Source: a virus
IMG/VR virus record: IMGVR_UViG_3300007516_000001
Length of the DNA: 64,000 bases
Reading direction: 5' to 3' (one strand)
Made by a program: the position numbers and the translations under genes. How positions within the stretch are numbered: the stretch's first letter is position 1; the number at the start of each line of letters is the position of its first letter. Below, one piece after another: positions 1 through 58,173 of the stretch. The notes under the pieces were generated by a model. The model was not told where the DNA came from. It searched no databases and was given only the letters and a program-made list of their open reading frames with translations.

Positions 1-1
1 G

Positions 2-268
2 GTACTATCTGAATTATCCGGTGATTGGGTCACTTGTGCTTGTGGGAATCTATGTGACGCTATACCTAGAAGAACCAAAAAAAATGCTGCTGACTGGGGA
101 AGGTCAGGTCTAAAAGGAGAACCCGTAGATTTTAGGTTAGCTCACATGGGTTTGCAATTTTCTTATCAGGTAAGAACTGAACAATATGCTCTTGCCATAA
201 GTACATTACGTGAAATTGAAGAAAGGGCAGTAGAGATATTAGAACAGATGGAAGGTACACTCGAATAA
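2..268 (+). CDS. Cys-motif family protein, copy 0 (5' end cut by window edge)
   Basis: Frame is open from the window edge to TAA at 266-268. Carries the WVTCACGNLCDAIPRR core and IEERAVEIL tail shared with five downstream paralogues. Confidence 0.8.
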   Translation, partial: VLSELSGDWVTCACGNLCDAIPRRTKKNAADWGRSGLKGEPVDFRLAHMGLQFSYQVRTEQYALAISTLREIEERAVEILEQMEGTLE

Positions 269-278
269 TTAATATATA

Positions 279-330
279 GGGTATGATAGAAATGTCATAC
301 CCTTTTCTTAGATTTGTTCTGTTAATCAAT
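279..330 (+). promoter_or_regulatory. Stem-loop plus promoter cassette, copy 1
   Basis: Hairpin gggtatga/tcataccc (279-302) followed by a T-run. TAgaTTTG -7-like box at 309-316. Conserved TTTGTTCTGTTAATCAAT at 313-330. ATG at 344. Confidence 0.7.
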
Positions 331-343
331 AAAGACTAAAAAT

Positions 344-742
344 ATGAATAAGCCCTTCAACATTCACAAAGAGAACCACTTTAATTGGTTCAGAGCTTTA
401 AAACTTCAAGAGGCTAGACAAAGATATCTTTACCAAAAAAAGCCTGATGCAGCAAGTGAACCTAGTACGTTTTATAAGGAAACTAAGGTAAGATACATAG
501 ATGCCTACTTTGAATTAAAAAAGATATCCTCATCATGGACTACTTGTGCTTGTGGAAATCTCTGCGATGCTATACCTAGAGCAGAGGGTAAACCCTTGGA
601 CGATATATTAGCTAATGAGGGCCAACAATTTTATACGTGCGTGGGTAACGAAGATTACCCCGAAGCTTTAAAAGCCCTATATAGAGTCGAAGAGAGGGCA
701 ATTCAGGTACTAACAGAAATGGGGGTAATCAATGTGGGGTAG
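344..742 (+). CDS. Cys-motif family protein, copy 1
   Basis: 132 aa ORF with IHKENHFNWFRAL, WTTCACGNLCDAIPR and VEERAIQVL motifs. Preceded by cassette 1. Confidence 0.85.
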   Translation: MNKPFNIHKENHFNWFRALKLQEARQRYLYQKKPDAASEPSTFYKETKVRYIDAYFELKKISSSWTTCACGNLCDAIPRAEGKPLDDILANEGQQFYTCVGNEDYPEALKALYRVEERAIQVLTEMGVINVG

Positions 743-1328
743 TAGACATTTAGAAATAGACCGGGTAATCTTTAGAAACCTGTGCATCCAACTTAAGGGG
801 TATACAGATTGTGAGGAATTGGGCCTTGCATCAAGAGAGGATGGTATATTAGGAGTTTCTTTACTTACTATACCTGCTAAATATGTATACCCCTTTCTAT
901 CCTATTGTGGGGATGAAATGTCAGAGGATGATAGACCCCGGGGTTATGGAGATTTTGAAACCTATAATTCTGATATAATTATAAAGTTCTTTCAATGGGC
1001 CCTTACACAGAGAAGAAGGATGGTATCTGTTGAAATGGAACTGAACCACTTTTACTGGCTATTCCATGATTTGTACCATGCCACTCATCATGTTTCGAGT
1101 TGCTTTCTTAATGTTGGGCCTAATAGTGAATTTGAAACCTATACTGCTACATTCGATTTAGCAAAAGAAGCCGGACCTGAATACTATGAACTCTGTTTAC
1201 TTACCGAAGATGAATCACGAGAATTAGTAGATGCCTTCAATACCCGATTTGCAAGTCGATGCGATAAAATGCCCTATTATATATTTGACCCCTACTTAAA
1301 AAAAGAAGAGCTCGAAATTGAAGATTAG
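732..1328 (+). CDS. hypothetical protein
   Basis: 198 aa ORF whose start overlaps the upstream stop. His-rich HDLYHATHH segment. No family recognised. Confidence 0.65.
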   Translation: MWGSRHLEIDRVIFRNLCIQLKGYTDCEELGLASREDGILGVSLLTIPAKYVYPFLSYCGDEMSEDDRPRGYGDFETYNSDIIIKFFQWALTQRRRMVSVEMELNHFYWLFHDLYHATHHVSSCFLNVGPNSEFETYTATFDLAKEAGPEYYELCLLTEDESRELVDAFNTRFASRCDKMPYYIFDPYLKKEELEIED

Positions 1329-1340
1329 GATATTAAGTAC

Positions 1341-1370
1341 CCTTTACGTATATTTGTTCTGTTAATCAAT
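1341..1370 (+). promoter_or_regulatory. Promoter cassette, copy 2 (hairpin half only)
   Basis: gtaccctttacgTATATTTGTTCTGTTAATCAAT, with the TAtaTTTG box at 1349-1356. ATG at 1384. Confidence 0.6.
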
Positions 1371-1383
1371 TAAACATAAAGAT

Positions 1384-1716
1384 ATGAAAAGTGCCGATGA
1401 AGTTAATGCAATGGTTGAAACCCTCTTAGAAAACATGGACTTTGAGAAGATTCATGCCTTAATGGTTGTGAACAAATGGACATGGAGTACTTATGATTAT
1501 CAAACTAAGGTTCATGAAAATCAAGTTCCAACACTTGAGGCTCTCAAAATTACTGCTCGAACCCTTATCGTTAGAATGTTAGGAGAACCAATAGGAAGCA
1601 GTATCGGTACAGGGGGCTTCAATGTTTCTGTCCTACGTATGCAAAATTCTGTACCTGACCATTTTTACCGACTTAGCTTTGATTGGGCTTCAGCCCAGGC
1701 TTCATACCATCAATAA
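1384..1716 (+). CDS. hypothetical protein
   Basis: 110 aa ORF directly downstream of cassette 2. Confidence 0.7.
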   Translation: MKSADEVNAMVETLLENMDFEKIHALMVVNKWTWSTYDYQTKVHENQVPTLEALKITARTLIVRMLGEPIGSSIGTGGFNVSVLRMQNSVPDHFYRLSFDWASAQASYHQ

Positions 1717-1717
1717 C

Positions 1718-2038
1718 ATGGGTTGCATACTTAAAACAGTTCTATTGATAGTGGGTATCTTTTTAGTGGGGGTTATGCTTTTAGAAGATAATCCCAAAAC
1801 ACCACCAGGCCCTACTCCCTATTCTTATGATTATGTCAATGCCAGAGAAATATGGCCCCAAGATACATTCCATCTGATGCAACACCCATACAGGTCAAAT
1901 CAATGGGTAACTAAGGAAGAGGGTAGAATAATTAAGGAAAGCAGAACATATCGAGCAAATACTAAAAAACCTGATACCTCAGGACAAGCATTAGAATCCC
2001 ATGTCGAAGATATCGTAGATGGGTTATTAGACCACTAA
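1718..2038 (+). CDS. hypothetical small membrane protein
   Basis: ATG at 1718, immediately after the upstream TAA (taacATG). N-terminal hydrophobic helix ILKTVLLIVGIFLVGVMLL. The track ORF start at 1622 overlaps the upstream gene and is unlikely. Confidence 0.6.
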   Translation: MGCILKTVLLIVGIFLVGVMLLEDNPKTPPGPTPYSYDYVNAREIWPQDTFHLMQHPYRSNQWVTKEEGRIIKESRTYRANTKKPDTSGQALESHVEDIVDGLLDH

Positions 2039-2048
2039 AACAAATACC

Positions 2049-2471
2049 ATGAATATTCACAAAGAGAACCCCTTTGATTGGTTCAAAGCCCTAGAAGAAC
2101 AACAAAAGTTATTGCTTGAATTAGATGCGTACCTAGAATCTCCAAGTCAAGACCCGATAATACAAATGGAGATGGATATAAACAACCTTATATACCAGAA
2201 AGAAAAACGCAAGTTAAAAGACTTAGCCAGTAATTGGGTCACTTGTGCTTGTGGGAATCTTTGCGATGTTATACCTAGAAGAGATGACAATTCGGTCAGA
2301 GAGCCTGCTGATGCTATTCTTTCTTCACAGGGGCTAATATTTTCAATAGCCATAGGAGATTCAAATTGGACGTTAGCAATAGAGTCTTTAAAACTAATTG
2401 AAGCCCGAGCAATACAGGTATTAGAAGAATTGTATCCCGATGCAAAGTTTCACCAATACCCAAAAGATTAA
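2049..2471 (+). CDS. Cys-motif family protein, copy 2
   Basis: 140 aa ORF with MNIHKENPFDWFKALEEQ, WVTCACGNLCDVIPRR and IEARAIQVLEE. Confidence 0.85.
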   Translation: MNIHKENPFDWFKALEEQQKLLLELDAYLESPSQDPIIQMEMDINNLIYQKEKRKLKDLASNWVTCACGNLCDVIPRRDDNSVREPADAILSSQGLIFSIAIGDSNWTLAIESLKLIEARAIQVLEELYPDAKFHQYPKD

Positions 2472-2477
2472 TATATA

Positions 2478-2529
2478 GGGTATGATTGATTAGTCATACC
2501 CTTTTCTTATATTTGTTCTGTTAATCAAT
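2478..2529 (+). promoter_or_regulatory. Stem-loop plus promoter cassette, copy 3
   Basis: Hairpin at 2478-2501, T-run, then TAtaTTTGTTCTGTTAATCAAT (2512-2529). ATG at 2543. Confidence 0.7.
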
Positions 2530-2542
2530 TAAACATAAACAA

Positions 2543-2935
2543 ATGAATATTCACAAAGAGAACCCCTTTGATTGGTTCAAAGCCCTAGAAGAACAAAGAA
2601 AGTTATCACTTGAATTAGAGGCCTTTTACGCATTACCCCCCAATCAAGACGTGGAAATAAACATGGATATGGGTATAAAAGACCAGATATACAAGAAAGA
2701 AAAACGTAACTTAAATATCCTAGCAGGGGGTTGGGTTACTTGTGCTTGTGGAAATCTATGTGACGCTATACCTAGATTAGATGACCAACTCCATGAGCCC
2801 GCAGACCAAATACTTTCTACGATAGGAGTCCTATTTTCAAAAGCCATAGGAAATTCAGATTGGAAGTTAGCAATAAAATACTTACATGAAATTGAAGCCC
2901 GAGCAGTAGAGTTATTAGAAGAGATTAACCGATAA
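2543..2935 (+). CDS. Cys-motif family protein, copy 3
   Basis: 130 aa ORF. The N-terminus is nearly identical to copy 2. Carries WVTCACGNLCDAIPR. Confidence 0.85.
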   Translation: MNIHKENPFDWFKALEEQRKLSLELEAFYALPPNQDVEINMDMGIKDQIYKKEKRNLNILAGGWVTCACGNLCDAIPRLDDQLHEPADQILSTIGVLFSKAIGNSDWKLAIKYLHEIEARAVELLEEINR

Positions 2936-2944
2936 CCTGAAAAA

Positions 2945-3694
2945 ATGAACCAAGATACTGAAGTACCTAAGAACATCATAGAAAAGCTGGAGAAGCTAAT
3001 GGCCCTAGAAGAAAGGGGTGGCACGATGGAAGAATCTATTAATGCCTCTACTCGAATACAGGAGATACTCCGAAAGTATAACCTCGACAGGTCTGATATT
3101 AATGCCAATAAGGAAGATGCCGGGGCCACTAAATTCAGTGGGGTATTCAATGACCTCTTTAAAAAGAATGAGGGTGATTTCTATGTAGTACTCCTTAATA
3201 ACATTGCAGAGATTAATGGGTTAGTATTGATAGCAGTCAGGAAAGAAGGACTGGCAATTAACCTGGGGGGTTATCGAATATATGGCAAAAAACATCAGAT
3301 AGAGATATGCCTGTTCTTCACAGACCAGCTTGCCACTAAAATTCGCATACTTGAAAATCGAGCATGGAATGAATACCGGGGAGATACTAAGAGGGGGCAA
3401 TATAGACGGAGTTTCTATAAAGGGGCTAGCAATGCTATTCTGTCTAAATTACGTCAGGCAGCTGAAATCTCAGAGAATAAAACTCCGGAGTATGGATTGA
3501 TGAGGGTGTCTGACTTAGACCAAGCAAGAGCCATTTGTAAACTGGACTTAGCAGGTGAAGATAGATTAAAAAGTGGCAAACAATCAAAAGCGGGTTCACA
3601 AGATGGATTCCACACAGGCATACAAGCAGGTTCACGAATGGACTTAAATAAGGGAGTTGGAAATAACCCGTCAAGTTCAAGACTACTAAATTAG
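2945..3694 (+). CDS. hypothetical protein with a DUF2786-like N-terminal helix motif
   Basis: 249 aa ORF. The N-terminal IEKLEKLMALEERGGTMEESINASTRIQEILRKYNL resembles the DUF2786 pattern common in phage and plasmid proteins. This is recognition by eye only. Confidence 0.45.
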   Translation: MNQDTEVPKNIIEKLEKLMALEERGGTMEESINASTRIQEILRKYNLDRSDINANKEDAGATKFSGVFNDLFKKNEGDFYVVLLNNIAEINGLVLIAVRKEGLAINLGGYRIYGKKHQIEICLFFTDQLATKIRILENRAWNEYRGDTKRGQYRRSFYKGASNAILSKLRQAAEISENKTPEYGLMRVSDLDQARAICKLDLAGEDRLKSGKQSKAGSQDGFHTGIQAGSRMDLNKGVGNNPSSSRLLN

Positions 3695-3695
3695 T

Positions 3696-3941
3696 ATGCG
3701 AAGTATTACCCAGGAGTTGTTGGAGTTAAATAAAGAAATGGATGCCCTTTACGTCCGATATGAAGCGCTGATTTACGTTATTGAACACCAACACTCCTTA
3801 GGTATATTCGACATCTCAAAGGAGTTTGCAGAAGCTGAGCAATTAGGCCATCTGATTAATGCCCTACACGAAATTCAAAGCTCTTGGATAAGAATACAAA
3901 TCATAAAGACTAAAACCATGAATACCTTTGGCTTAAATTAA
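3696..3941 (+). CDS. hypothetical protein
   Basis: 81 aa ORF tightly coupled to the upstream stop. Confidence 0.6.
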   Translation: MRSITQELLELNKEMDALYVRYEALIYVIEHQHSLGIFDISKEFAEAEQLGHLINALHEIQSSWIRIQIIKTKTMNTFGLN

Positions 3942-3946
3942 AGTCT

Positions 3947-4015
3947 TGCTCAGAGCAATTATCTTTTTATAAACATAGACTTACATATCTTTAGAAGAGA
4001 TAATTGCTCAGAGCA
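3947..4015. repeat. 18-bp inverted repeat with a TGCTCAGAGCA palindromic core
   Basis: tgctcagagcaattatct (3947-3964) and agataattgctcagagca (3998-4015), with one mismatch at the palindrome centre and a 33-nt spacer. Confidence 0.7.
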
Positions 4016-4097
4016 TCTTATTTGATGCCTATTTGAGAACTTCTATGATTCTTCTATATATAGATATGTAGAATAGGACCCGAAATAATAATATGTA

Positions 4098-4148
4098 GGG
4101 TATTTGCATATGTCATAACCTTGATATATATTTGTCTTGTTAATTCAT
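4098..4148 (+). promoter_or_regulatory. Degenerate stem-loop plus promoter cassette, copy 4
   Basis: gggtatttgcatatgtcataacc followed by TAtaTTTGTCTTGTTAATTCAT (4131-4148). A diverged version of the consensus cassette. Confidence 0.5.
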
Positions 4149-4169
4149 TATTCACTTAATACTTCTCGC

Positions 4170-4661
4170 ATGAAGAAATCAGAAAGGTTAGCTCTCGCCC
4201 AAATGGAAGCGTTGATAAAGACCCCTAAAAAGGTCAAGAATAATTCCAATGTTCAAGAGAAATTGGAAGAGGCCACTAAGGACTTAGTAAGAAAGAAAGT
4301 CAAAAAGAAAGTGGCAAAGAAAGTTGAACCGGAAGAAAAAAAGCCTAAATCCGATAAGAGGGTTAGAATTTTCCGTAATCTTGATTATGATAATGCCACT
4401 CGATTGGAGGCTAAAAAGCATCGTGACCAAGTTCGTCTTAAGGTCTTCAAGATTGTTGGACCCTATGCTGCAAAGCGTAGAGCAAATGCCCTTAAGAAGG
4501 ATGCAAGAAATGTAGCCTTTGAAAGTTTCAAAGAGTTATATACCCAAGAATACCTACTATCATTGGATAGAGTAGATGAGGTATTCAGAGGAGGCAATGA
4601 CAACATGAATGATATGGGTTTGTTCTTAGTTGACTTCAAAGCGTACCTGGGCCAGAAATAG
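4170..4661 (+). CDS. Lys-rich hypothetical protein (paralogue of 13302-13694)
   Basis: ATG at 4170 (MKKSERL). The track start at 4137 is non-ATG and lies inside the promoter cassette. The C-terminal FESFKELYTQEYLLSLDRVDEVFRGG...FKAYL matches the C-terminus of the 13302 ORF. Confidence 0.7.
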   Translation: MKKSERLALAQMEALIKTPKKVKNNSNVQEKLEEATKDLVRKKVKKKVAKKVEPEEKKPKSDKRVRIFRNLDYDNATRLEAKKHRDQVRLKVFKIVGPYAAKRRANALKKDARNVAFESFKELYTQEYLLSLDRVDEVFRGGNDNMNDMGLFLVDFKAYLGQK

Positions 4662-4685
4662 TCCAACCCATCAGATTAATGTTTA

Positions 4686-4737
4686 GGGTATGATAGAAAT
4701 GTCATGCCCTTTTCTTATGTTTGTTCTGTTAATCAAT
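4686..4737 (+). promoter_or_regulatory. Stem-loop plus promoter cassette, copy 5
   Basis: Hairpin at 4686-4709 with one G-U pair. TAtgTTTGTTCTGTTAATCAAT at 4720-4737. ATG at 4753. Confidence 0.7.
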
Positions 4738-4752
4738 TAGAACTAAAAGACA

Positions 4753-5037
4753 ATGAGCAAAACAAAACCCGAATCTGTCAAGGCCTTGATTCTTAGACTT
4801 GATAGCCAGAAAAGAAAAACCGAGGATTCAAAGGAAATTACGGAAATTCAAGGCCTCATCAATCAACTTGAAGCCCGACCCAGCAAGAGATGGGCCTACG
4901 GAGAAATATCTACCATAGCTAATGGCTATATATTGAACAAGGATTTAGTTGGCTTACGTAGGTTTCTTACCTCTTGCAAGAACCATCGCGTAGCATACCC
5001 TACCCTAATGGATAAACTCTTAAAAAACCAAAAATGA
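4753..5037 (+). CDS. hypothetical protein
   Basis: 94 aa ORF downstream of cassette 5. Confidence 0.7.
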   Translation: MSKTKPESVKALILRLDSQKRKTEDSKEITEIQGLINQLEARPSKRWAYGEISTIANGYILNKDLVGLRRFLTSCKNHRVAYPTLMDKLLKNQK

Positions 5038-5336
5038 ACTATCAATTCTCAATCAAGAATGCCCAACACTTATTAATACTTACTTGGATTGCCCTGCATT
5101 CTACTCAAGAATTGCAAGACTCTCATCATGGTATCGAGATAGATGATATCGTTGAAGTTCTTTTGGAACCCAACCCCGAAAAGGAAGATGAAATGAAAGT
5201 GACCCGAACCATCCATGCACAATTCAATGGAGCCTATGCAGAGCCCGGTAAGATGACTACCTTTGTAGAAGAGGCAATGCAATTCATTTCTGATTATGGG
5301 CTCAAATTAACCCTATCAACATCAGGGTTCTTTTGA
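5034..5336 (+). CDS. hypothetical protein
   Basis: 100 aa ORF with an ATGA start/stop overlap with the upstream gene. Confidence 0.65.
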   Translation: MNYQFSIKNAQHLLILTWIALHSTQELQDSHHGIEIDDIVEVLLEPNPEKEDEMKVTRTIHAQFNGAYAEPGKMTTFVEEAMQFISDYGLKLTLSTSGFF

Positions 5337-5355
5337 CTCAAAATATTAATATAGG

Positions 5356-5407
5356 GGGTATGATAGAAATGTCATACCCTTTTATTATATTTGTTCTGTT
5401 AATCAAT
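5356..5407 (+). promoter_or_regulatory. Stem-loop plus promoter cassette, copy 6
   Basis: Hairpin at 5356-5379. TAtaTTTGTTCTGTTAATCAAT at 5390-5407. ATG at 5421. Confidence 0.7.
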
Positions 5408-5420
5408 TAATCATAAACAA

Positions 5421-5819
5421 ATGAATATTCACAAAGAGAACCACTTCGACTGGTTCAAGGCTTTAAGAACTCAGAAAGTATTGGAGTTACTTAAAGAGAG
5501 ATATTATAATCAGAGCATTGACGGAATATATGAGGGCCCTTCTCAGATAGCCCGATGGATTCTTCTATATGATGCAAATGCCATAGATTTAGCATATCTT
5601 GCTAGTGACTGGCCCACCTGTGCTTGTGGGAATCTATGTGACGCTATACCTAGAAGAGACGGCCAACTCCATGAGCCCGCAGACCTCAGATTAAGAGGGC
5701 TGGGGTCCTCGTTTTATTACGCAGTAGAGTCAGAAGATTGGAATCAGGCTACGGACTTATTGCAGAAGATTGAGGCCCGGTCAGTAGAATTACTAAAAGA
5801 GATATACTCAAAAAAATAA
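5421..5819 (+). CDS. Cys-motif family protein, copy 4
   Basis: 132 aa ORF with MNIHKENHFDWFKAL, WPTCACGNLCDAIPRR and IEARSVELLKE. Confidence 0.85.
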   Translation: MNIHKENHFDWFKALRTQKVLELLKERYYNQSIDGIYEGPSQIARWILLYDANAIDLAYLASDWPTCACGNLCDAIPRRDGQLHEPADLRLRGLGSSFYYAVESEDWNQATDLLQKIEARSVELLKEIYSKK

Positions 5820-5823
5820 ACCC

Positions 5824-6273
5824 ATGTATACTCCGATAAAATTACACAGAGAAGCAGACTTTGACTGGTTCAAAATCTTAGAGAAGCAGGTACTGTTAAA
5901 GGCCGTTTTCCATAGATATTATGACAACGATAACATTCCAGAGCGCATGAAGGATAAAATACTTGAATATAGGAGCCTCTATATGAAACTCAGGAGTGAT
6001 TTGAAGATTAAATCAGGTAATTGGGTTACTTGTGCTTGTGGAAGTCTATGCAATGTTATACCTAACAGATATGGTGTAAAATCAGAAGGCCCCTTAGATG
6101 AAAGATTATACCAACTGGGCAGTCTTTTTCATAGGAATGTATCTGATGAGGAATGGAATGAGGCCATGTGGACTTTAGAAGCAATTGAAATCAGAGCAAT
6201 GGAGTTAATATCTGCAATCTATCCTGGCAGAACTATCCTAAATAACCACGAAAATAAATATGTAGGGGTATGA
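5824..6273 (+). CDS. Cys-motif family protein, copy 5 (most diverged)
   Basis: 149 aa ORF with HREADFDWFKIL, WVTCACGSLCNVIPNR and IEIRAMELI. Its stop codon lies inside the cassette 7 hairpin. Confidence 0.8.
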   Translation: MYTPIKLHREADFDWFKILEKQVLLKAVFHRYYDNDNIPERMKDKILEYRSLYMKLRSDLKIKSGNWVTCACGSLCNVIPNRYGVKSEGPLDERLYQLGSLFHRNVSDEEWNEAMWTLEAIEIRAMELISAIYPGRTILNNHENKYVGV

Positions 6274-6317
6274 TTGGAATGTCATACCCTTTTCTTATAT
6301 TTGTTCTGTTAATCAAT
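6266..6317 (+). promoter_or_regulatory. Stem-loop plus promoter cassette, copy 7
   Basis: Hairpin at 6266-6289. TAtaTTTGTTCTGTTAATCAAT at 6300-6317. ATG at 6326. Confidence 0.7.
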
Positions 6318-6325
6318 TAAACAAT

Positions 6326-6574
6326 ATGAAATATATACTGAGCATTTGCATACTATCAAACGTCGCATTCAGAACAATGAATCATCCGATGCCCCAAGAA
6401 AGAATCTACCATAAGGGAGAAATTCTTGCACCGGATTATGTTTCAACTGAATACAGAGTTATTAACAATGCAAAAGGCATGAATGAAGAAATGCCTTATG
6501 CCTTTACCGATAGTGAAATTAATGATGTGCTAAAGAAGTACACCACAGAACTAACTTCTAAACCCATAAACTAA
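6326..6574 (+). CDS. hypothetical protein
   Basis: 82 aa ORF downstream of cassette 7. Confidence 0.65.
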   Translation: MKYILSICILSNVAFRTMNHPMPQERIYHKGEILAPDYVSTEYRVINNAKGMNEEMPYAFTDSEINDVLKKYTTELTSKPIN

Positions 6575-7251
6575 TGAATCAACTAGCAAAAATCCTTAAC
6601 GAAGTTCTTACCCTAGAACAGGTTCTTGAGGTACTCCAAAAAGAGTTTAAAGACATACCTAAAATAGGTATCTATTCAGGTACAGAGGCCAATAGGCTCT
6701 ATAAACATCACGAAGATGAAGATGATTTCGTAGTAGATAAGGAGTATGAAGATACCACTCTCTATGCTTGCCAGAACTTTGCCTATATTGATGGAACCGA
6801 TGAAGAATATTTGGATGGAGCCTATTTCATTAACTTTAATGATGATTTAGTGCTAGAACTTACACCATCGACACCACCAACACTGGAATCAAGAATATTG
6901 GGCATTGAAGCAATAATAAAGAAACTACACGGGTTTGCAATTAGTCACCTACCTGTAAAAGAATCAGCAAGAAATAACTCTAAGTTCTGCAAGGAGGTTT
7001 TAAATGAATTGATTACTTACTCACCCCTTGAGCAACAGGTAATATTGGAACAATGGAAATTAGCCTCCATCCAAAACCGACATGAAAGAATTGAACTCAT
7101 GAAGCAAGATATTGCCCATAAGCAGAAGATGATAAAAACTATGGTAGAACAAATTGAGGGTATTCGATGGACCCTCAATAATGAGGTTAGATGGGCCGAT
7201 GACAATCCGAATTTCAAGGATGATGAGAATGATGAGGGCTCAAAAGATTAA
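6574..7251 (+). CDS. hypothetical acidic protein
   Basis: 225 aa ORF with its start adjacent to the upstream stop. Confidence 0.7.
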   Translation: MNQLAKILNEVLTLEQVLEVLQKEFKDIPKIGIYSGTEANRLYKHHEDEDDFVVDKEYEDTTLYACQNFAYIDGTDEEYLDGAYFINFNDDLVLELTPSTPPTLESRILGIEAIIKKLHGFAISHLPVKESARNNSKFCKEVLNELITYSPLEQQVILEQWKLASIQNRHERIELMKQDIAHKQKMIKTMVEQIEGIRWTLNNEVRWADDNPNFKDDENDEGSKD

Positions 7252-7501
7252 GACCGTGACTAAACTAGCCCTCAAAAATAAGGAACACGCGAAGAACATC
7301 GTAACCTTTGAGACCCTACCTCTTAGGCTCCATAACAATGCCACTCTTATTGCACCCTACCGAAAGAAAGCAGAAGAATCCTTGGCACATATAAATGCTT
7401 TGGAGCCTATTAGGAAAAAGAAGTGGTTGAAGCGTATTAGAAAAAGAATCAAGGCCCATTATTATCCATTAGCAATTCTAAAACCTAAGTCTTATCTTTG
7501 A
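7220..7501 (+). CDS. hypothetical basic protein
   Basis: In-frame ATGs at 7220, 7223, 7229 and 7232 near the upstream stop at 7251. Arg/Lys-rich (KKKWLKRIRKRIKAH). The track start at 7154 would overlap by about 100 nt. The true start is uncertain. Confidence 0.45.
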   Translation: MMRMMRAQKIKTVTKLALKNKEHAKNIVTFETLPLRLHNNATLIAPYRKKAEESLAHINALEPIRKKKWLKRIRKRIKAHYYPLAILKPKSYL

Positions 7502-7526
7502 TTAAACAAATAAAAACTATTCACAA

Positions 7527-8285
7527 ATGAGAAATGTAAGAGCAATACCCGAATACATTCCGGCAAAAGAACTAAAGAATTTCAAACTTGCCCAATATGA
7601 ACTTTATCCTGACCTTGAAGAAGGGGGTGAAGAAGGAGGTTATTATACCCGTAGAAGTGGTAATGAAAGTTATTGGGGTTTAGATTATCATGAGCCCTTA
7701 GATTGTTTCTGTCTTATGGTTTTGGATTATGATATGTTGAGTCCAGGCCAACAAAGGAACTTTGAACTATTCAGAATCAATGCCCAAAAACAATTGAAAT
7801 ACCCGATTATTGTGTCTATGATAGAGAGCCTAGAAGAAGATGCTAGATATCTCGGCATAGATACAGGTTTCATCAGAGGTTATGCAAGAACATTAATGTC
7901 AGACCCGAATTTTAGCACCCTAAAGTTTTCACCCAAAGAAAAGCCCTCTGATAGACTGTGTAAATTAATGTTATATGCTAGCCTCATAGAGGCAATTATA
8001 AGAATTGGGCACGTAGAAAATACCGATGATTGGAACCCATATTTAAGAATCAAAACCGATGATGGACATTCAATAGAAACTCCTATCGGGTTCACAAGCA
8101 TCGAATATGTTAGTGAAGGAAAATTGGCTCCCATAAGAGAATATGATGGCCCTGAGAGTATGATACCCAAAGACTTTAGTCTTAAGATGGTAATAGAAGA
8201 ACAATACCTTGATAAGAAACTACCTCGAGCGTATTTATCCATAGAACTAATAAAGATAGTCGAAATTAAACTTCATGCTTGCTAG
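7527..8285 (+). CDS. hypothetical protein (N-terminal domain paralogous to 11820-12098)
   Basis: 252 aa ORF. ESYWGLDYHEPLDCFCLM matches DSYWGFDYDEKDDVYCFM of the 11820 ORF. Preceded by the AACTATTCAC leader at 7515-7524. Confidence 0.75.
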   Translation: MRNVRAIPEYIPAKELKNFKLAQYELYPDLEEGGEEGGYYTRRSGNESYWGLDYHEPLDCFCLMVLDYDMLSPGQQRNFELFRINAQKQLKYPIIVSMIESLEEDARYLGIDTGFIRGYARTLMSDPNFSTLKFSPKEKPSDRLCKLMLYASLIEAIIRIGHVENTDDWNPYLRIKTDDGHSIETPIGFTSIEYVSEGKLAPIREYDGPESMIPKDFSLKMVIEEQYLDKKLPRAYLSIELIKIVEIKLHAC

Positions 8286-8312
8286 ATAACCCCAAATATT
8301 AATCATAAAGAT

Positions 8313-8786
8313 ATGAACAACTTATTCGAGCAAATCAAATCACACAAGCACTATGAGGGCCTTTTACACGTAGTGGAAGATGCCAAAACTATAGAGGCCA
8401 TCTGCTTAATACTTTCAGAAGATACCCAACTACTAGAGTTAGTTCGGGCCGATAACTATAATGTTGAAACCGATAAGATATACCCGTTAACTGTTAACTA
8501 CAATATTGAACCCTATTGTGCAGGGTTTATAATTGTATTCAACATACCCAGTAACCACAACCATTTATTAAGCCGAAGCGAGCAACTTGACCTAAGCCGA
8601 CATTATAAGAATCGCCACATGGACTTACTTAAAAGATTGGGTATGCTTAAACATTGTTTCGGAAGTTATACACCCGAAGAAACAGAAGATGAGGAGGCCT
8701 CTTTAGATATTCAGGTTGATAGTACCCAATACCCTATAGTAATGATAACCCTCTTTGAAAATAATGAGGTACACTCGAATAATTAA
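8313..8786 (+). CDS. hypothetical protein
   Basis: 157 aa ORF. Its 3' end runs into the extended cassette 8 sequence. Confidence 0.7.
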   Translation: MNNLFEQIKSHKHYEGLLHVVEDAKTIEAICLILSEDTQLLELVRADNYNVETDKIYPLTVNYNIEPYCAGFIIVFNIPSNHNHLLSRSEQLDLSRHYKNRHMDLLKRLGMLKHCFGSYTPEETEDEEASLDIQVDSTQYPIVMITLFENNEVHSNN

Positions 8787-8792
8787 TATATA

Positions 8793-8845
8793 GGGTATGA
8801 TAGAAATGTCATACCCTTTTCTTATATTTGTTCTGTTAGCAATTC
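8793..8845 (+). promoter_or_regulatory. Stem-loop plus promoter cassette, copy 8 (variant leader)
   Basis: Hairpin at 8793-8816. TAtaTTTGTTCTGTTAGCAATTCA at 8827-8845. AACTATTCAC at 8860-8869. ATG at 8870. Confidence 0.7.
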
Positions 8846-8869
8846 AGCTATCCAATAAAAACTATTCAC

Positions 8870-9283
8870 ATGACAAAATTAAAGAATGCCTCCAATAGCA
8901 CTAATCTTACCCCGGAAGATAGAGCAGAAATAAAAGCCTTTATGTTATCAACTTTAAAAGGATATAATGCCGATGGAGATATAGATACCATCTATGTAAA
9001 TCTAGACCGACATACAGGACCAGGAATAAACTTTGTAGGTTTCCCTGATAATCCGGTTGAATACGAATACACAGAGGAACTATTAGCCGAAGCAATAGAC
9101 AAAGTGCTAGATACTTATTTAGAAACCTCAGATGCCAAGAAAGGTTTTTTTATATATACCTGTGGAGATAATAGAGAAGTATCATTGGACCACGTAGATG
9201 ATAATGATACAGACCAAACTCTTGCCTGCTTTGAAAGTGAAACCTTAGAATCAGGTAGACATTATTATATAGGGTATGATTAA
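8870..9283 (+). CDS. hypothetical acidic protein
   Basis: 137 aa ORF. Its stop codon lies within the cassette 9 hairpin. Confidence 0.7.
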   Translation: MTKLKNASNSTNLTPEDRAEIKAFMLSTLKGYNADGDIDTIYVNLDRHTGPGINFVGFPDNPVEYEYTEELLAEAIDKVLDTYLETSDAKKGFFIYTCGDNREVSLDHVDDNDTDQTLACFESETLESGRHYYIGYD

Positions 9284-9323
9284 TATATCATACCTTTTAC
9301 GTATATTTGTTCTGTTAATCAAT
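9273..9323 (+). promoter_or_regulatory. Stem-loop plus promoter cassette, copy 9
   Basis: Hairpin ggtatgat/atcatacc at 9273-9294. TAtaTTTGTTCTGTTAATCAAT at 9306-9323. ATG at 9338. Confidence 0.7.
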
Positions 9324-9337
9324 TAAGACTATTTACT

Positions 9338-9619
9338 ATGGCACACAAATCACAATGGGTTGATGTAATTGAATCTTTGACTCGGAAAACAAAGAAAGTG
9401 AAATTTACCACTAAAGAAATTTCAGATGAGGCTAGACAACTATATAAGGAGGGCTCCTTAAAAAGCAAAGCCGACTATCCTTGGTTTATGTCAAACTATG
9501 TTTCATCGGCATTAAAGAACATGGCTAAAGCAAAGACCCCAAAGATAGGATTTGCATGGAAAAAAGCAGGTACTAAAGGAAAAACAAAAATCTGGTATTT
9601 AATCAATAACCCCAAATAA
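9338..9619 (+). CDS. hypothetical basic protein
   Basis: 93 aa Lys-rich ORF downstream of cassette 9. Confidence 0.7.
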   Translation: MAHKSQWVDVIESLTRKTKKVKFTTKEISDEARQLYKEGSLKSKADYPWFMSNYVSSALKNMAKAKTPKIGFAWKKAGTKGKTKIWYLINNPK

Positions 9620-9645
9620 CATGGACACCCCAATAATAATATAGA

Positions 9646-9697
9646 GGGTATGATTGAAATGTCATACCCTTTACGTATATTTGTTCTGTTAATCAAT
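9646..9697 (+). promoter_or_regulatory. Stem-loop plus promoter cassette, copy 10
   Basis: Hairpin at 9646-9669. TAtaTTTGTTCTGTTAATCAAT at 9680-9697. ATG at 9715. Confidence 0.7.
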
Positions 9698-9714
9698 CAA
9701 TCAATCATATAACT

Positions 9715-9969
9715 ATGACCGAAGAAACTTTACTCCATGCAGATGCGATAGTATCAATGGAAACCCTACCCCAACAAATAGACCACATATCGGCATCAAT
9801 GCATAAAAAGGTGAGAATAGCAGGTGAGTACATTGACAAATTACCCGAAGAGGAGAAGGAAGAGGCTAATCAATATATTCAGAATCGGGTTGAGGCTTAT
9901 TACGAACCATCTATCCTAGGCTCCGATAATCAAATGTATAGCGTAGCCTCTCTTGACAATATGTTTTAA
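9715..9969 (+). CDS. hypothetical protein
   Basis: 84 aa ORF downstream of cassette 10. Confidence 0.65.
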   Translation: MTEETLLHADAIVSMETLPQQIDHISASMHKKVRIAGEYIDKLPEEEKEEANQYIQNRVEAYYEPSILGSDNQMYSVASLDNMF

Positions 9970-9995
9970 CCCATAATCAAATAACCCCAAATAAC

Positions 9996-10556
9996 ATGGA
10001 CACCCAAGACCCAATTGAACACTTGCATCAAGATATAATGCAAGCACTACCCATAGGGGTAATTCAAAATATCAAGGCAATTAAATTTGTAAGCGATTTA
10101 ATTGCTGCCGAAGCCTTAGTTGAAAATGTAATAGAAGAGCTCAGAAATGTAGACCTGAATCTGACCGAAAAAGAAGAGGATGAATATACCCTAAGAATCC
10201 TTAGATGCTACTATGCCCATAAGGTAAAAGTCTTAAGAAGCAATAGCAAACCCGAACCCCAAAACAAAAGAGATTTGGGTAGAGATATGGACGACATCAG
10301 AAAGGACTTCAAAGAGATACTCAAGGATATCACCCTAGAAGAAGCCGATGAACTATATAGCTATTGCAAAAGACGTTATGGCATCAAGGTTCAAAGGGCA
10401 ATAGAAAAACTCGATAATGAGAACCAAAGAATGCTTGATGAGATGGCTACCTTGGCCGGAACCCAAGAAGATTTGAAAAGAGAATTACAAACACTGAACC
10501 AGCTGCAATATGGGTACGATTTAGACAACCATTATCATGAGTCTGAGGTTGATTGA
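9996..10556 (+). CDS. hypothetical protein
   Basis: 186 aa ORF rich in charged, coiled-coil-like sequence. Confidence 0.7.
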   Translation: MDTQDPIEHLHQDIMQALPIGVIQNIKAIKFVSDLIAAEALVENVIEELRNVDLNLTEKEEDEYTLRILRCYYAHKVKVLRSNSKPEPQNKRDLGRDMDDIRKDFKEILKDITLEEADELYSYCKRRYGIKVQRAIEKLDNENQRMLDEMATLAGTQEDLKRELQTLNQLQYGYDLDNHYHESEVD

Positions 10557-10581
10557 TTAACACTTAAATCAAACCCGAATG

Positions 10582-10611
10582 AGGGGGTACTTAAATGTAC
10601 TCCCTTTTTTT
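10582..10611 (+). terminator. Intrinsic terminator
   Basis: 9-bp stem agggggtac/gtactccct with one G-U pair and a 6-nt loop, followed by a T7 run. Confidence 0.75.
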
Positions 10612-10769
10612 ATGCCAATTCTCCAAGAGTCAATATGATGGATTAAATAACCAGATACCCATAAGGTAATCAAGGCCCTCAACCAAGAGTACCCATCATC
10701 CCAAAACCTACAAGCTATAGAGGTATAACCATCAACCCCTACCACCCCAAAACAAAAAAAATAACAACT

Positions 10770-11606
10770 ATGAAAAGTAACAAAGTAAGAAGAGTACCCA
10801 GACCCTTAGGAACTACCATAATGTTAATGGAGTACCACAAACAACCCAACGCAAATATACAAAAACAAATAAAGGAGCAACTCACAAAACATCTCATCAA
10901 TACCTATGCCTCAAACAATCAAACCTTAAACGGAAGGATATATAGTATAGAAGAACTAGCAACTTATCTTCAGGTACCACAGAATCGGGTAATGGGTCAA
11001 GTAGTAGAGCATTCAATGCAGATGGCTCGGGTATTAGGAGAGGATGGGTCGATGAAAGAGATGTATGAAGGCTTGCTTTTAACTGCCCTAGGTTGGGCCC
11101 TTGGCGATCGGGTCAAAGTTACCAAACAATTGGAGCTGTTGAACCGGAGCCAAAATGGCAAGTACAAACCATTTATTTCAGGTGAAGTTAATGGCCTTTT
11201 AGGTACCCTTTTGAAGAGCCAAGGAGCTTTATTAGAGGTAGCCAAGACAATGAAACCAGAAACACAAAGGCACCCACATCTACCGGGCCATAGCCAGGTC
11301 ATTAACGGGAACGTCCTATATAATAATGGAGTAAATGATGGCAGTGTTTCAAGTGTACCTGGCTCAAAGGCATTGACGGTCGATGAGGCCTCTAAATTAA
11401 TTAATGAAAGGGTTCAGGCGCCCATTGCCCTTAACCCTTTTAACGATTACCTGGAGGGTACCCCAAACATCTCAGCCCTTGGAGAAGTATCCAGCATATC
11501 TTTGGAGCCTGCTGTTCATTCCCACGACACCCAAGACGATCCGGGTACCCATGCTAGCCACCGGGCAAGAGCAAGAGGCTATGATGATGAGGTACCCATG
11601 ACTTAA
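10770..11606 (+). CDS. hypothetical protein
   Basis: 278 aa ORF, visibly more GC-rich than its neighbours. Preceded by a 158-nt C/A-rich untranslated stretch. Confidence 0.7.
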   Translation: MKSNKVRRVPRPLGTTIMLMEYHKQPNANIQKQIKEQLTKHLINTYASNNQTLNGRIYSIEELATYLQVPQNRVMGQVVEHSMQMARVLGEDGSMKEMYEGLLLTALGWALGDRVKVTKQLELLNRSQNGKYKPFISGEVNGLLGTLLKSQGALLEVAKTMKPETQRHPHLPGHSQVINGNVLYNNGVNDGSVSSVPGSKALTVDEASKLINERVQAPIALNPFNDYLEGTPNISALGEVSSISLEPAVHSHDTQDDPGTHASHRARARGYDDEVPMT

Positions 11607-11760
11607 TAATACCCCCCACTACCCTGGAGCCAGCAGAGTAGGGCGCCATACTGATGCCTTGCCTTATTATAGATTAAATAGGTTGGTTGGGTACCCTTAG
11701 ACCTACTCTGCTGGCTTGCTCTACCTGCCTACTCTACCGTGACCTCTACCCGAAATATTT
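11604..11760. repeat. GC-rich structured non-coding island A
   Basis: Perfect 14-bp inverted repeat gccagcagagtagg (11629-11642) / cctactctgctggc (11702-11715). CCTACTCT and CCACTACCCTGG motifs are shared with island B (12800-13078). Confidence 0.7.
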
Positions 11761-11790
11761 AATTAGGATTTGGGCAATAAAGGATGGATA

Positions 11791-11806
11791 TTTGCATTCA
11801 ATCAAT
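11791..11806 (+). promoter_or_regulatory. Degenerate promoter cassette (no hairpin)
   Basis: gaTAtTTGCATTCAATCAAT resembles the cassette core. AACTATTCAC at 11810-11819. ATG at 11820. Confidence 0.4.
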
Positions 11807-11819
11807 TAAAACTATTCAC

Positions 11820-12098
11820 ATGAAATACATTCCAGCATTAAAAATTAACTCACTTCCCTTAGAGCAATTTGGCTTAAAGGAGGAAGAGGGCAAGAAAGGG
11901 TTTTATTCTCCTATGAATGAGGATGATTCTTATTGGGGTTTCGATTATGATGAGAAGGATGATGTGTATTGCTTTATGTCTTGGGGCATTCATGCAGAAC
12001 ATAGTGAAGAAAGAAAAAAGCAGGTAGAATTTATCTTGGAGTTTTATCGGTTATCAACTTTCGTTCTCGGTTACGAAATGGAATTTGATTGCTTTTAA
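11820..12098 (+). CDS. hypothetical protein (paralogue of the N-terminus of 7527-8285)
   Basis: ATG at 11820 (MKYIPALK), right after the AACTATTCAC leader. The track start at 11784 lies inside the promoter-like sequence. Confidence 0.7.
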   Translation: MKYIPALKINSLPLEQFGLKEEEGKKGFYSPMNEDDSYWGFDYDEKDDVYCFMSWGIHAEHSEERKKQVEFILEFYRLSTFVLGYEMEFDCF

Positions 12099-12104
12099 TT
12101 AAAG

Positions 12105-12173
12105 AATAGGGCCCATTACTATTAATTAGGATATGGGTCCTATTCTATCTATATTTGTTCTGTTAGTAATTCA
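12105..12173 (+). promoter_or_regulatory. Stem-loop plus promoter cassette, copy 11 (different hairpin, same promoter core)
   Basis: 12-bp stem aatagggcccat/atgggtcctatt (12105-12144) with one G-U pair. TAtaTTTGTTCTGTTAGTAATTCA at 12154-12173. AACTATTCAC at 12186-12195. Confidence 0.65.
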
Positions 12174-12196
12174 ACTAACAATCTAAACTATTCACT

Positions 12197-12373
12197 ATGA
12201 AGGCATCACAAATTTTCAATCGTGGCATTATTCGTCACAATGCAGAATCTAAAGTATTAGTTCTGAAAGAAGGAGTTAAAGGAAGATATAAGGGTCCTAA
12301 AACTAAAAGTGATTCAATGGGTCCAATCTTCGCAGTTCGTTCTATTCAGCCTAAACAAAATTCATGGGACTGA
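12197..12373 (+). CDS. hypothetical small protein (58 aa, below the ORF-track cutoff)
   Basis: ATG at 12197, two nt after the AACTATTCAC leader. MKASQIFNRGIIRHNAESKVLVLKEG..., with TGA at 12371-12373. Confidence 0.55.
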   Translation: MKASQIFNRGIIRHNAESKVLVLKEGVKGRYKGPKTKSDSMGPIFAVRSIQPKQNSWD

Positions 12374-12465
12374 TATTATTCTTCGGCAAAATCATATTTG
12401 GAGTCCTATCAATTATTTTGATAGGTGCTTCAATGGGTGCTCTTCCAACTGATGAGGAGCAATGA
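12364..12465 (+). CDS. hypothetical 33-aa hydrophobic peptide
   Basis: ATG at 12364, overlapping the upstream stop. MGLILFFGKIIFGVLSIILIGASMGALPTDEEQ has a single predicted transmembrane helix. Confidence 0.4.
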   Translation: MGLILFFGKIIFGVLSIILIGASMGALPTDEEQ

Positions 12466-12481
12466 CAATATCAAGTAAGAT

Positions 12482-12513
12482 TTCTCCCATGGGTCCTAAT
12501 TCTCATGGGAGAA
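12482..12513 (+). terminator. Perfect 10-bp hairpin (possible terminator or processing site)
   Basis: ttctcccatg / catgggagaa with a 12-nt loop. No strong T-run follows. Confidence 0.4.
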
Positions 12514-52145: not shown

Positions 52146-52553
52146 ATGAAGAAAAGAACACCCCGTAAAAAACTCAGTAAGAACAAAGAGTTTAAGGATA
52201 TAACAAAACCCCTAGACTTCTCAAAAATAGGAACCCTTGAAGACCCCTGCTTCGGTAAGCACCATGATGTGAAAGCACCTGAATGCGTATCTTGCGGGGA
52301 TTCGGAGTTATGCCTTATTGCGCTCAGTCAGAAAGCCAAATTGAAAAGGGAGAAACTCGAAGAAACTATAACGTTCAAGGACGTAGAGAAAGATATACCA
52401 GATGAGGAGAACCCAACTATACAAGTACCTAAGTTGATTCGTAAGTACAAAAAGAAAGAATACTCCTTAAAGAAAACCCTTAGACTGGTACTAAAGAAAT
52501 TTCCAGACTCGGATAAAGCCTTTGTTACACGCTTATACAAAAATAAAAACTAA
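52146..52553 (+). CDS. hypothetical Lys-rich protein with a Cys cluster
   Basis: 135 aa ORF with CFGKHHDVKAPECVSCGDSELC. Confidence 0.65.
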   Translation: MKKRTPRKKLSKNKEFKDITKPLDFSKIGTLEDPCFGKHHDVKAPECVSCGDSELCLIALSQKAKLKREKLEETITFKDVEKDIPDEENPTIQVPKLIRKYKKKEYSLKKTLRLVLKKFPDSDKAFVTRLYKNKN

Positions 52554-53389
52554 TGGAAGAACAACTAGAAATATTCGATGGCAATGGGTTTGAACTTATG
52601 TATCGAAAGCAGCATGAGTTTATAGAACTCCTAATATCAAAAAGCCAATTACCTGTAATTGAAACCGTAGCTTTACACCTCGAAACAAAAGAATCCCAAT
52701 CCTTTTTCAGAGAGCTCTCAGGTTTTTATGTAGAGGAATTAGTCGAGGCTCGAATAGCCCTAGCAGAATTAGTAGAGCTTAGACATGAAAGAGGCTTTAC
52801 AACAACTCCCGAATTTTTAACTAAACTCGATGGATTCAATGAAGAAATAGCCGACACTTTTTGTTTTGCCCTAGAGCTATTGATATATGCAGGGGTAAGA
52901 GTAAGTGAATTGGAGAGGTATATAGAACATCAGTTTGTGGATGAACTAGGAGATGAATACAAAGCCTCGGGTTATTGGATAGAGGACAATCTACTGGCTT
53001 CAATGTTGCAACTAGCAAGGGTACAGAATATTAGATGGGGTGCGTATCAATTGAATATTACCCGAACAAATGTAACTTTAACCCATGAAGATGATAGTTA
53101 TTTGAATGTTGCTGGAAGAAGATTAAGCCAGGAAGCCTCACCGGTTTTGGATGGCTTAAACTTTCAGGTAATACAAAACCTATACACGTCACTAAACATG
53201 ATGAAGTCTAAATATTGGAGGGCAGAAGAAGTACCCATCAATGAGATTGACTTAAGAAGAAGCCTCTGCACTTGGTTTATGTCATACCTGCAATTGCTGG
53301 ATATGTACGGAGTAAATGAAATGTCAACCCTTAAAAATTATATAAACAAACATGAGAAGAATCTCAACCGGCAAAAAGAGGGCTATTAA
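52553..53389 (+). CDS. hypothetical protein, possible all-alpha NTP pyrophosphohydrolase
   Basis: 278 aa ORF. EELVEA ... EEIAD spacing is reminiscent of the MazG/dimeric-dUTPase ExxE...ExxD metal-binding motif. This is a weak call. Confidence 0.3.
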   Translation: MEEQLEIFDGNGFELMYRKQHEFIELLISKSQLPVIETVALHLETKESQSFFRELSGFYVEELVEARIALAELVELRHERGFTTTPEFLTKLDGFNEEIADTFCFALELLIYAGVRVSELERYIEHQFVDELGDEYKASGYWIEDNLLASMLQLARVQNIRWGAYQLNITRTNVTLTHEDDSYLNVAGRRLSQEASPVLDGLNFQVIQNLYTSLNMMKSKYWRAEEVPINEIDLRRSLCTWFMSYLQLLDMYGVNEMSTLKNYINKHEKNLNRQKEGY

Positions 53390-54344: not shown

Positions 54345-55117
54345 TTGCCATAAGAGAGAACACCCTACGTGATGCGATAGCCGAAGTAGAAGAACAACTA
54401 AGAATAAAGGGTTCAATAGTTGCAACAGAATCATGGCAGGGTATTAAACCTCCAAGAGATTTCTATGAGATAAACAACATAGTTATATCTGCACCCATGC
54501 CTACTGATAATAGTTTAGTTAATCTGGTAGGACAAATACAACCTAATTGCCCCTGGGCTAATATACACTTCGATGAAAGAATTTCAGGAAAACCCCTCAA
54601 CCCAGGAGAGTCATATAAACACTGGCCTTTCTATGGAAGAGATAATCAAATTCGCACACAAGCTGAAAAGTTTAGTCACACGTACATGGAAAGATTCTGG
54701 CCCAAGCATGCCGGACAAACCTCAGAAGTATTCCCCAACCGAGGTATTCGATACGACTACGGGGATTTAAACTCGGTGGTCGAGTTAATTAAGAGAGAAC
54801 CACATACAAGACAGGCCTACCTCCCAGTATTCTTTCCCGAGGATACAGGTGCTTCTCACAAAGGGAGGATTCCCTGCACTATAGGCTACCATTTCATCAT
54901 CAGAAATGGACGTTTGAACCTCAATTATCATATTCGTTCATGTGACTACCTCAGACACTTTAGGGATGATATATATTTAGCGGTAAGACTCGCAGAATGG
55001 GTTAGAACCCAAGTGAGTATACCCGAATTATTGTTGGGAGAATTTTGTATGTTTATATCTAATTTGCATATCTTTGACATAGAAATAGGAAAACTAAAAA
55101 ACCATGGCCCAAAGTAA
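54341..55117 (+). CDS. thymidylate synthase-fold pyrimidine (hydroxy)methylase, substrate uncertain
   Basis: REPHTRQAYLPVFFPED, IPCTIGYHFIIRNGRLNLNYHIRSCDYLRHFRDDIY and SNLHIFD align without gaps to ThyA sRRxxxSxWNP, PCH-20 residues-RSCD and the Asn177 region. Confidence 0.6.
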   Translation: MIAIRENTLRDAIAEVEEQLRIKGSIVATESWQGIKPPRDFYEINNIVISAPMPTDNSLVNLVGQIQPNCPWANIHFDERISGKPLNPGESYKHWPFYGRDNQIRTQAEKFSHTYMERFWPKHAGQTSEVFPNRGIRYDYGDLNSVVELIKREPHTRQAYLPVFFPEDTGASHKGRIPCTIGYHFIIRNGRLNLNYHIRSCDYLRHFRDDIYLAVRLAEWVRTQVSIPELLLGEFCMFISNLHIFDIEIGKLKNHGPK

Positions 55118-58170: not shown

Positions 58171-58173
58171 AAG

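Follow-up and report, generated by a model that had tools for sequence, protein, structure and literature searches.

A six-copy array of small cysteine-loop proteins in the early region of a phage with a probable Bacteroidota host

The window analysed here, the 64,000 nucleotides (nt) of the virus record IMGVR_UViG_3300007516_000001, opens with six short open reading frames (ORFs) on the + strand, numbered 1 to 6 by position, that encode paralogous proteins of a single family (Table 1). The ORF list, a protein alignment, BLASTP and a family hidden Markov model (HMM) agree on all six, as a preliminary description of this DNA had proposed. At the protein level, identity to copy 2 is 32-47% for the remaining five and identity between copies 3 and 4 is 65%, the BLASTP expectation values (E) between copies run from 5e-19 to 1e-55 and the family HMM scores each copy at 1e-30 to 1e-39; the similarity from copy to copy is therefore far beyond chance. 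The residues invariant in the six copies (W, TCACG, LC, IP, P.D, L, G, F, A, L, E and R) form the blocks W-x-TCACG-x-LC-x-x-IP, P-x-D..L...G..F and A...L...E-x-R. Copy 1 is cut by the edge of the window, and its full-length protein (P0006) has 142 amino acids (aa) on sister contigs. A near-invariant 46-nt core had also been described at the DNA level; its six starts were found to be exact, with 34-43 of the 46 bases common to each pair of copies and 32 columns invariant. Further copies had been suspected upstream, but an HMM scan of the window, of 10 kb upstream in a sister contig (L001) and of the remaining gap in another (L054) located exactly six copies genome-wide.

Table 1. Coordinates of the family copies, shared tracts and early-region cassettes in the window.
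Feature	Position	Strand	Description
Copy 1	2-268	+	3' part, 89 codons, cut by window edge; frame 2 without stop
Copy 2	344-742	+	132 aa
Copy 3	2049-2471	+	140 aa; 10 nt 3' of preceding ORF
Copy 4	2543-2935	+	130 aa; sequence used for structure model
Copy 5	5421-5819	+	132 aa
Copy 6	5824-6273	+	149 aa; most divergent (N71S, D74N, R78N); 4 nt after copy 5
46-nt DNA cores (starts)	26, 536, 2235, 2732, 5610, 6022		One in each of copies 1-6
Shared tract of copies 4 and 5, copy 4 side	2738-2807	+	70 nt, 91% identical to 5616-5685; 23-mer at 2785
Shared tract of copies 4 and 5, copy 5 side	5616-5685	+	23-mer at 5663
Full cassettes (8)	268, 2467, 4675, 5345, 6255, 8782, 9261, 9635	+	Hairpin, T-run, TA..TTTG, TTCTGTTAATCAAT
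Hairpin-less versions	1338, 4116 (degenerate), 12150	+	Box still present
Cassette between copies 1 and 2	268-338	+	Hairpin AGGGTATGA..TCATACCCT and T-run (terminator-like), then TAGATTTG within TTTGTTCTGTTAATCAAT
Cassette between copies 3 and 4	2467-2537	+	Hairpin, T-run and box
Cassette upstream of copy 5	5345-5415	+	Hairpin, T-run and box
Cassette overlapping end of copy 6	6255-6325	+	Precedes ORF 6326-6574

The six copies belong to a large family in metagenomes. A profile built from them retrieved 392 proteins in a word-indexed search of a set of 5.8 billion proteins, and when 1.84 billion cluster representatives (clusters at 50% identity) were searched exhaustively with an HMM, 2,235 clusters matched at E <= 1e-3 and 1,635 at E <= 1e-10. 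Members are typically 100-125 aa long, with a canonical form of about 105 aa, and no Pfam domain is recorded for any of them. The canonical protein begins with TYAE..G..PF(D/N)W..L, continues with the loop W-(V/T)-T-C-A-C-G-N-x-C-x-x-I-P-R and then P-x-D..L..LG..F, and ends in a helix with IE-x-R-(S/A), giving the consensus M-x-TY-x-E...PF(D/N)W...L ...(A/S)..W(V/T)TCACGN.C..IPR...G.P.D..L..LG..F...I.......A...L..IE.RS..LI. The copies of the window are members by full-length HMM match, and their invariant columns are common to 58 metagenomic relatives. When residue conservation was counted over 293 distinct sequences, W, C67, G70, P86, D88 and F98 were about 100% conserved, C69, R78 and R120 98% and C73 97%, with Asp as the main replacement of C73. 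In more than 40 other phages all synonymous positions of the core vary (TGT/TGC, GCT/GCA/GCC/GCG, ACT/ACC/ACG/ACA) while the amino acids are fixed and the frames remain open. This is thus a real protein-coding family, phage-borne and uncharacterised, with intact frames in all relatives, and the proposal that the copies are genuine paralogous proteins holds.

The three cysteines that had been called invariant are so in the six copies and in about 97% of the 293 relatives, but this does not extend to the whole family. In a divergent subfamily, which keeps W-x-TCACG and has the N-terminus ILTEAGL..WG..I..AE.RG.FT, the third cysteine (C73) is replaced by Asp in five of eight sequences and by Thr, Lys or Ser in the remainder; a search with this subfamily (L040) against the 5.8-billion-protein set gave six matches, none annotated. 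A prophage of Spirosoma terrae (L052 7260-8582) carries three tandem copies, two of which are degenerate in the motif (WVTDACGYQS and WFYCAVGSMDYRIPR), indicating that copies can lose cysteines yet persist. A metagenomic protein of 246 aa (P0121) contains two complete family domains in tandem, a fusion that may hint at a dimeric function of the domain.

Searches for a known relative were uniformly negative, in agreement with the earlier statement that the family was not recognised. The copies, 64 family members and divergent members had no match in Pfam, PHROGs, NCBIfam or PADLOC, the last of which covers defence systems and not counter-defence; only stray library matches appeared (E >= 0.004), none of them recurring among the 64 members. 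A tblastn search of copy 4 and the canonical member P0008 against 50,697 GenBank phage records found nothing, even at E = 1 and E = 0.1. The best hit of a sequence-profile search of the PDB was a de novo coiled coil (E = 0.13), and Foldseek against the PDB and BFVD gave at best E of about 1 and template modelling (TM) scores of at most 0.42, insignificant helical-bundle noise. In the literature on TCACGN and CxCx3C motifs no phage family was found, only the motifs of metallothionein and CopY. The family is new to curated knowledge, although its kind, that of expanded small accessory phage proteins, is familiar.

Two known groups deserve direct comparison. Zinc-binding anti-sigma (ZAS) domains are small and helical, carry the zinc motif H-x3-C-x2-C and bind sigma factors. 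WhiB-like proteins, which likewise bind sigma factors and also occur in phages, hold a [4Fe-4S] cluster with four cysteines (C-xn-C-x2-C-x5-C) and are found in actinobacterial hosts. The present family resembles both in its size of about 100 aa, helical character and conserved cysteine cluster, but its motif, C-x-C-x3-C/D, differs. The ZAS motif is absent, Pfam searched at E <= 1 gave two stray matches only, and the single anti-sigma structure in the Foldseek list, 7lq4, scored E = 2.6 and TM = 0.29. WhiB membership is contradicted by the presence of at most three cysteines, by their different spacing, by the absence of a Pfam match and by hosts that are mainly Bacteroidota.

An AlphaFold2 model of copy 4, built on an alignment of 64 sequences, is an all-helical bundle of high confidence (predicted local distance difference test score, pLDDT, 90.9; predicted TM score 0.83) with helices at residues 11-30, 37-61, 72-75, 89-103 and 107-129; a single-sequence model of P0008 was poor (pLDDT 60) and was not used. 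The cysteine loop (residues 62-78) lies between helices 2 and 3 in the copy 4 model and has lower pLDDT (81-88). From the FDW motif to the core, the six copies are about 25 residues longer than canonical members; in this model the additional residues form a long helix 1/helix 2 hairpin and constitute the most variable segment between copies; the length of the loop that follows IPR also differs among the paralogues. The motif Cys-x-Cys-x3-Cys/Asp has the spacing CxCx3C; in CopY and metallothioneins, CxCxxxC(xC) is known to bind Zn or Cu(I) through thiolates. There, however, the motif has a fourth cysteine and is part of a C-terminal tail or of a Cys-rich peptide, whereas here it lies in a loop of a helical bundle and offers at most three ligands. 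Because of this metal-thiolate precedent, and because the exchange of Cys for Asp preserves a ligand, we infer that the loop is metal-stabilised.

The copies arose where they now stand. Among 292 family sequences the six are each other's nearest relatives, which makes them an in-situ, lineage-specific expansion; in contrast, each of five tandem copies in another locus (L005) is closer to proteins of other phages. Synonymous divergence (dS) is saturated for most pairs of copies, so most of the duplications are old. Copies 3 and 4 are a younger pair, with a nonsynonymous divergence (dN) of 0.24, a dS of 0.46 and a dN/dS of about 0.5 overall and about 0.86 in the hairpin; their first 80 nt (2049-2128 and 2543-2622) are 94% identical, and dS over the first 19 codons is 0.06. 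Within the core, the codons for identical amino acids agree at 128 of 165 pair-sites (78%), whereas genome codon usage predicts agreement at 62 (38%). Outside the core, and without the young pair 3/4, the same codon is used at 218 of 440 pair-sites (50%), against 176 expected, and invariant residues there (G, R, A and L) are encoded by three or four different codons. The excess of shared codons shows that the core has been homogenised within the genome.

Two pair-specific tracts are similarly homogenised. When runs of concordant variable sites were tested by permutation, p was 0.0025 for the N-terminal tract common to copies 3 and 4 and 0.01 for a tract of copies 4 and 5 comprising the core and the following LHEPAD. 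The latter contains the 23-mer CCAACTCCATGAGCCCGCAGACC, which the preliminary description had assigned to copies 3 and 4 but which occurs only in copies 4 and 5. Differences between strains were assessed by comparing the window with three sister contigs (L001-L003) over 10,268 nt. Although family genes make up only about 22% of the 10 kb compared, they contain four of four difference events against L001, four of six against L003 and six of nine against L002. One is a complex, frame-restoring indel in the post-IPR loop of copy 1 (window positions 73-94), where RRTKKNAADWG in one strain corresponds to RRDDNAGWG in another; copy 2 and the tail of copy 6 carry changes as well. Three single-nucleotide polymorphisms (SNPs) in the core are synonymous: those at 46 (copy 1) and 5630 (copy 5) alter the same Gly codon (GGG/GGA) and that at 2737 (copy 4) a Val codon (GTT/GTC), and in each case both states are present among the paralogues. 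Taken together, the codon excess, the two tracts and the toggling SNPs bear out the idea of exchange between copies, and the pattern fits ongoing gene conversion combined with rapid change.

The array lies, as had been supposed, in the early region, among small same-strand ORFs punctuated by putative host-type promoter and terminator cassettes. These cassettes are confined to the first 12 kb (268-12186) of the + strand and consist of a G+C-rich hairpin, a T-run, a TAnnTTTG box and a conserved A-rich leader. Directly after each hairpin stands TATATTTG, TAGATTTG or TATGTTTG, and TTTGTTCTGTTAATCAAT has eight exact copies, all on the + strand between 313 and 9697, where 0.24 would be expected. TAnnTTTG is the -7 box of Bacteroidota sigma-A promoters (PMC9723704, PMC6847099) and is present in all eight full cassettes as well as in the hairpin-less sites, with no clear -33 TTTG. 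The extension of 18 nt, TTTGTTCTGTTAATCAAT, is specific to the phage, as is the conserved leader. An Rfam scan of 1-12500 gave no match. The cassette has the appearance of a terminator placed before a Bacteroidota sigma-A promoter, an arrangement that would cut the early region into short transcription units.

The earlier view that most copies possess their own promoter cassette must be revised, as a cassette stands directly upstream of only three of the six (copies 2, 4 and 5) and also precedes unrelated ORFs, being a general feature of the early region. Copy 1 abuts the preceding gene, and copies 3 and 6 have no cassette directly upstream. Each of the six copies borders a cassette on one side, and these repeats may therefore have mediated the duplications. 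Duplication in the early region is not confined to the Cys-loop family, as three further, weakly similar pairs of paralogous ORFs were noted (13892-14188/14188-14478, 4137-4658/13302-13691 and 7527-8282/11784-12095; 27-38% identity, E = 1e-7 to 7e-15). Among the neighbours of the copies, the ORF at 732-1328 (198 aa) shares its first 11 nt with the end of copy 2 and may be translationally coupled to that copy; it has a His-rich stretch (HDLYHATHH) and no Pfam match. The ORF at 2945-3694, directly 3' of copy 4, has weak similarity to DUF7168 (E = 2e-5) and DUF2786 (E = 5e-3), just below the Pfam cut-offs.

The window belongs to a tailed phage, with genes for a terminase, portal, protease, major head protein, sheath, tape measure, baseplate and family A DNA polymerase. 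Its nearest deposited terminase is 56% identical, and a megablast search of positions 1-8000 against GenBank phages gave no match. The same phage occurs on metagenome contigs of about 78 kb at about 99.8-99.9% identity, of which L001 and L054 cover parts beyond the window. The contigs are circular permutations of one another, and independent assemblies break in or near the array: the window begins within copy 1, L003 begins 655 nt ahead of that copy and L004 ends just after copy 2. Genes for nucleotide metabolism and recombination (window 52553-63014 and L054 11133-15402) encode a dUTPase-like protein, thymidylate synthase, dCMP deaminase, PolA, a RecA_N-domain protein, a 5'-3' exonuclease, proteins with Metallophos and SbcC-like (AAA_23/SMC_N) domains and a PD-(D/E)XK nuclease, a recombination toolkit that bears on the capacity of the phage for gene conversion.

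The host is probably a member of the Bacteroidota. Several features point in this direction: the gene just upstream of the array has a CHU_C domain match; the leaders are A-rich and without Shine-Dalgarno sequences, which is a clue to a Bacteroidota host (PMC6847099); the cassettes carry TAnnTTTG; and four of the five family matches in GTDB species genomes are in Bacteroidota (Algoriphagus, Pleomorphovibrio, Leeuwenhoekiella and Spirosoma). The related loci mostly have 31-49% G+C, but a few are higher, including one contig of 68% G+C binned as Mycobacterium, and the host range may therefore be wider than the Bacteroidota.

In the IMG/VR loci the gene is usually single. Arrays elsewhere comprise five copies (L005), four (L010), three (L020 and the L052 prophage) or, in several loci, two. 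The relatives are found mostly in Bacteroidota prophages and, in metagenomic phages, within early or DNA-metabolism regions; the larger neighbours mostly act in DNA metabolism (DnaB, PolA, PD-(D/E)XK nucleases, ribonucleotide reductase, ERF, RecT, NinG, UvrD, SNF2 and primase). In one lineage, however, the copies lie within the head module, where the genes run portal, copy, MuF-like protein, copy, prohead protease and major capsid protein (L011 8-4946; also L014, L016, L020, L029 and L031). Across 40 or more loci no neighbour is universally conserved, and synteny is restricted to lineages. Because of the absence of a conserved neighbour, the varying genomic position and the recurring arrays of two to five copies, the gene, judged from its sequence context, behaves as a mobile accessory gene.

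The genes of the array are early, accessory and fast-evolving, and their products vary at the periphery around a conserved centre. We favour, tentatively and in a nearly balanced case, the reading that the array encodes diversified early effectors with a metal-stabilised loop, which would act on host proteins for takeover or counter-defence. In this model, the Cys-x-Cys-x3-Cys/Asp loop would hold a metal ion (Zn, or Cu or Fe) and so stiffen a small binding module; a function common to all paralogues would reside in the conserved centre, whereas the variable hairpin and post-IPR loop would give each a different partner. Copies 2, 4 and 5 would open cassette-led early transcription units, and gene conversion, possibly carried out by the phage's own RecA_N-domain and SbcC-like proteins, would both shuffle and homogenise the copies. 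A more far-reaching form of the same idea appears doubtful to us: that the family represents a previously unseen fold with a metal or redox centre, limited to phages and mainly to those of Bacteroidota, whose members are widespread early effectors in which variable helical arms retarget an invariant loop, so that an array serves as a programmable arsenal directed at host defence or at core machinery. Several points weigh against the effector reading. No homology points to metal binding, to a partner or to expression; no invariant fourth metal ligand is evident among the conserved residues, and some of the L052 paralogues have lost Cys residues. About 15 residues are near-invariant across about 2,200 clusters, which speaks for a conserved chemistry or a target that hardly varies, and not for surfaces shaped by an arms race. 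Most phages have one copy beside replication or recombination genes, an arrangement that also fits a core phage function. As for gene conversion, the permutation test cannot distinguish it from uneven purifying selection, and the core SNPs, seen between metagenome assemblies, could be artefacts of consensus building.

Other explanations were considered. The proteins could be small thiol enzymes or redox or cofactor proteins, with T-C-A-C-G-N-x-C together with R78, D88, E118 and R120 forming an active or cofactor site (for example, Fe-S or a redox CxC) and the paralogues serving different substrates. The extreme conservation of a contiguous motif and of distant charged residues over 2,235 clusters is indeed more typical of catalytic or cofactor sites, and the neighbours are mostly nucleotide and DNA-metabolism genes; but no enzyme family or fold matches, the domain is all-helical and only about 105 aa long, the third Cys is replaceable and some paralogues are without Cys residues, and we regard this explanation as unlikely. 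We give no greater credence to a core phage factor that docks on a conserved host or phage machine (RNA polymerase or sigma factor, the replisome or recombination proteins) in the manner of ZAS domains or WhiB-like proteins, the six copies being sub-functionalised regulators and not tools of counter-defence. Such a role would agree with the single copy beside RecT, ERF, DnaB, PolA and nucleases in most phages and prophages, and a small helical protein with a Cys cluster and strict conservation would suit a conserved target; yet neither ZAS, WhiB nor any other regulator shows similarity in sequence or fold, the position of the gene varies, even to within the head module, and its absence from the 50,697 deposited phage genomes implies that it is not generally required. 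The head-module loci named above, where copies stand among portal, MuF, protease and capsid genes, would be explained if the proteins were packaged and injected in the manner of internal capsid proteins. This appears highly improbable, as that context comes from a single lineage, the window and most loci place the gene in early or DNA-metabolism regions behind host-type promoters, and no protease-site or scaffold features were seen. Finally, the unusual likeness of the core codons within the genome, inside compared with outside the core, could indicate a recombination or regulatory element at the DNA level with incidental ORFs. As far as sequence analysis can decide, this explanation is rejected and has practically no likelihood left, because core synonymous sites vary across phages whose amino acids are fixed and frames open; moreover, HMM matches span the full length of the protein, and Rfam gave no match.

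The array resembles diversified sets of small early or accessory phage proteins described elsewhere, such as T4 internal proteins, families of hyperplastic regions and anti-CRISPR or anti-defence clusters, which are likewise small, without a conserved partner and variable in position. Tandem duplication, rapid divergence, strain polymorphism and an early location are common to both. However, there is no relationship to them in sequence or fold, and the W-x-TCACG core is far more conserved than is usual in such arrays.

Bacteroidota phages are abundant in aquatic, soil and gut habitats, and their early genes are almost entirely uncharacterised. The family offers a tractable target in this respect, being soluble and of about 105 aa, with six natural variants that show which surfaces are free to vary. 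If its members prove to be replication or transcription accessory factors, thousands of hypothetical proteins would be annotated; if they are true metal-dependent effectors of takeover or counter-defence, they would represent a new fold and a new mechanism.

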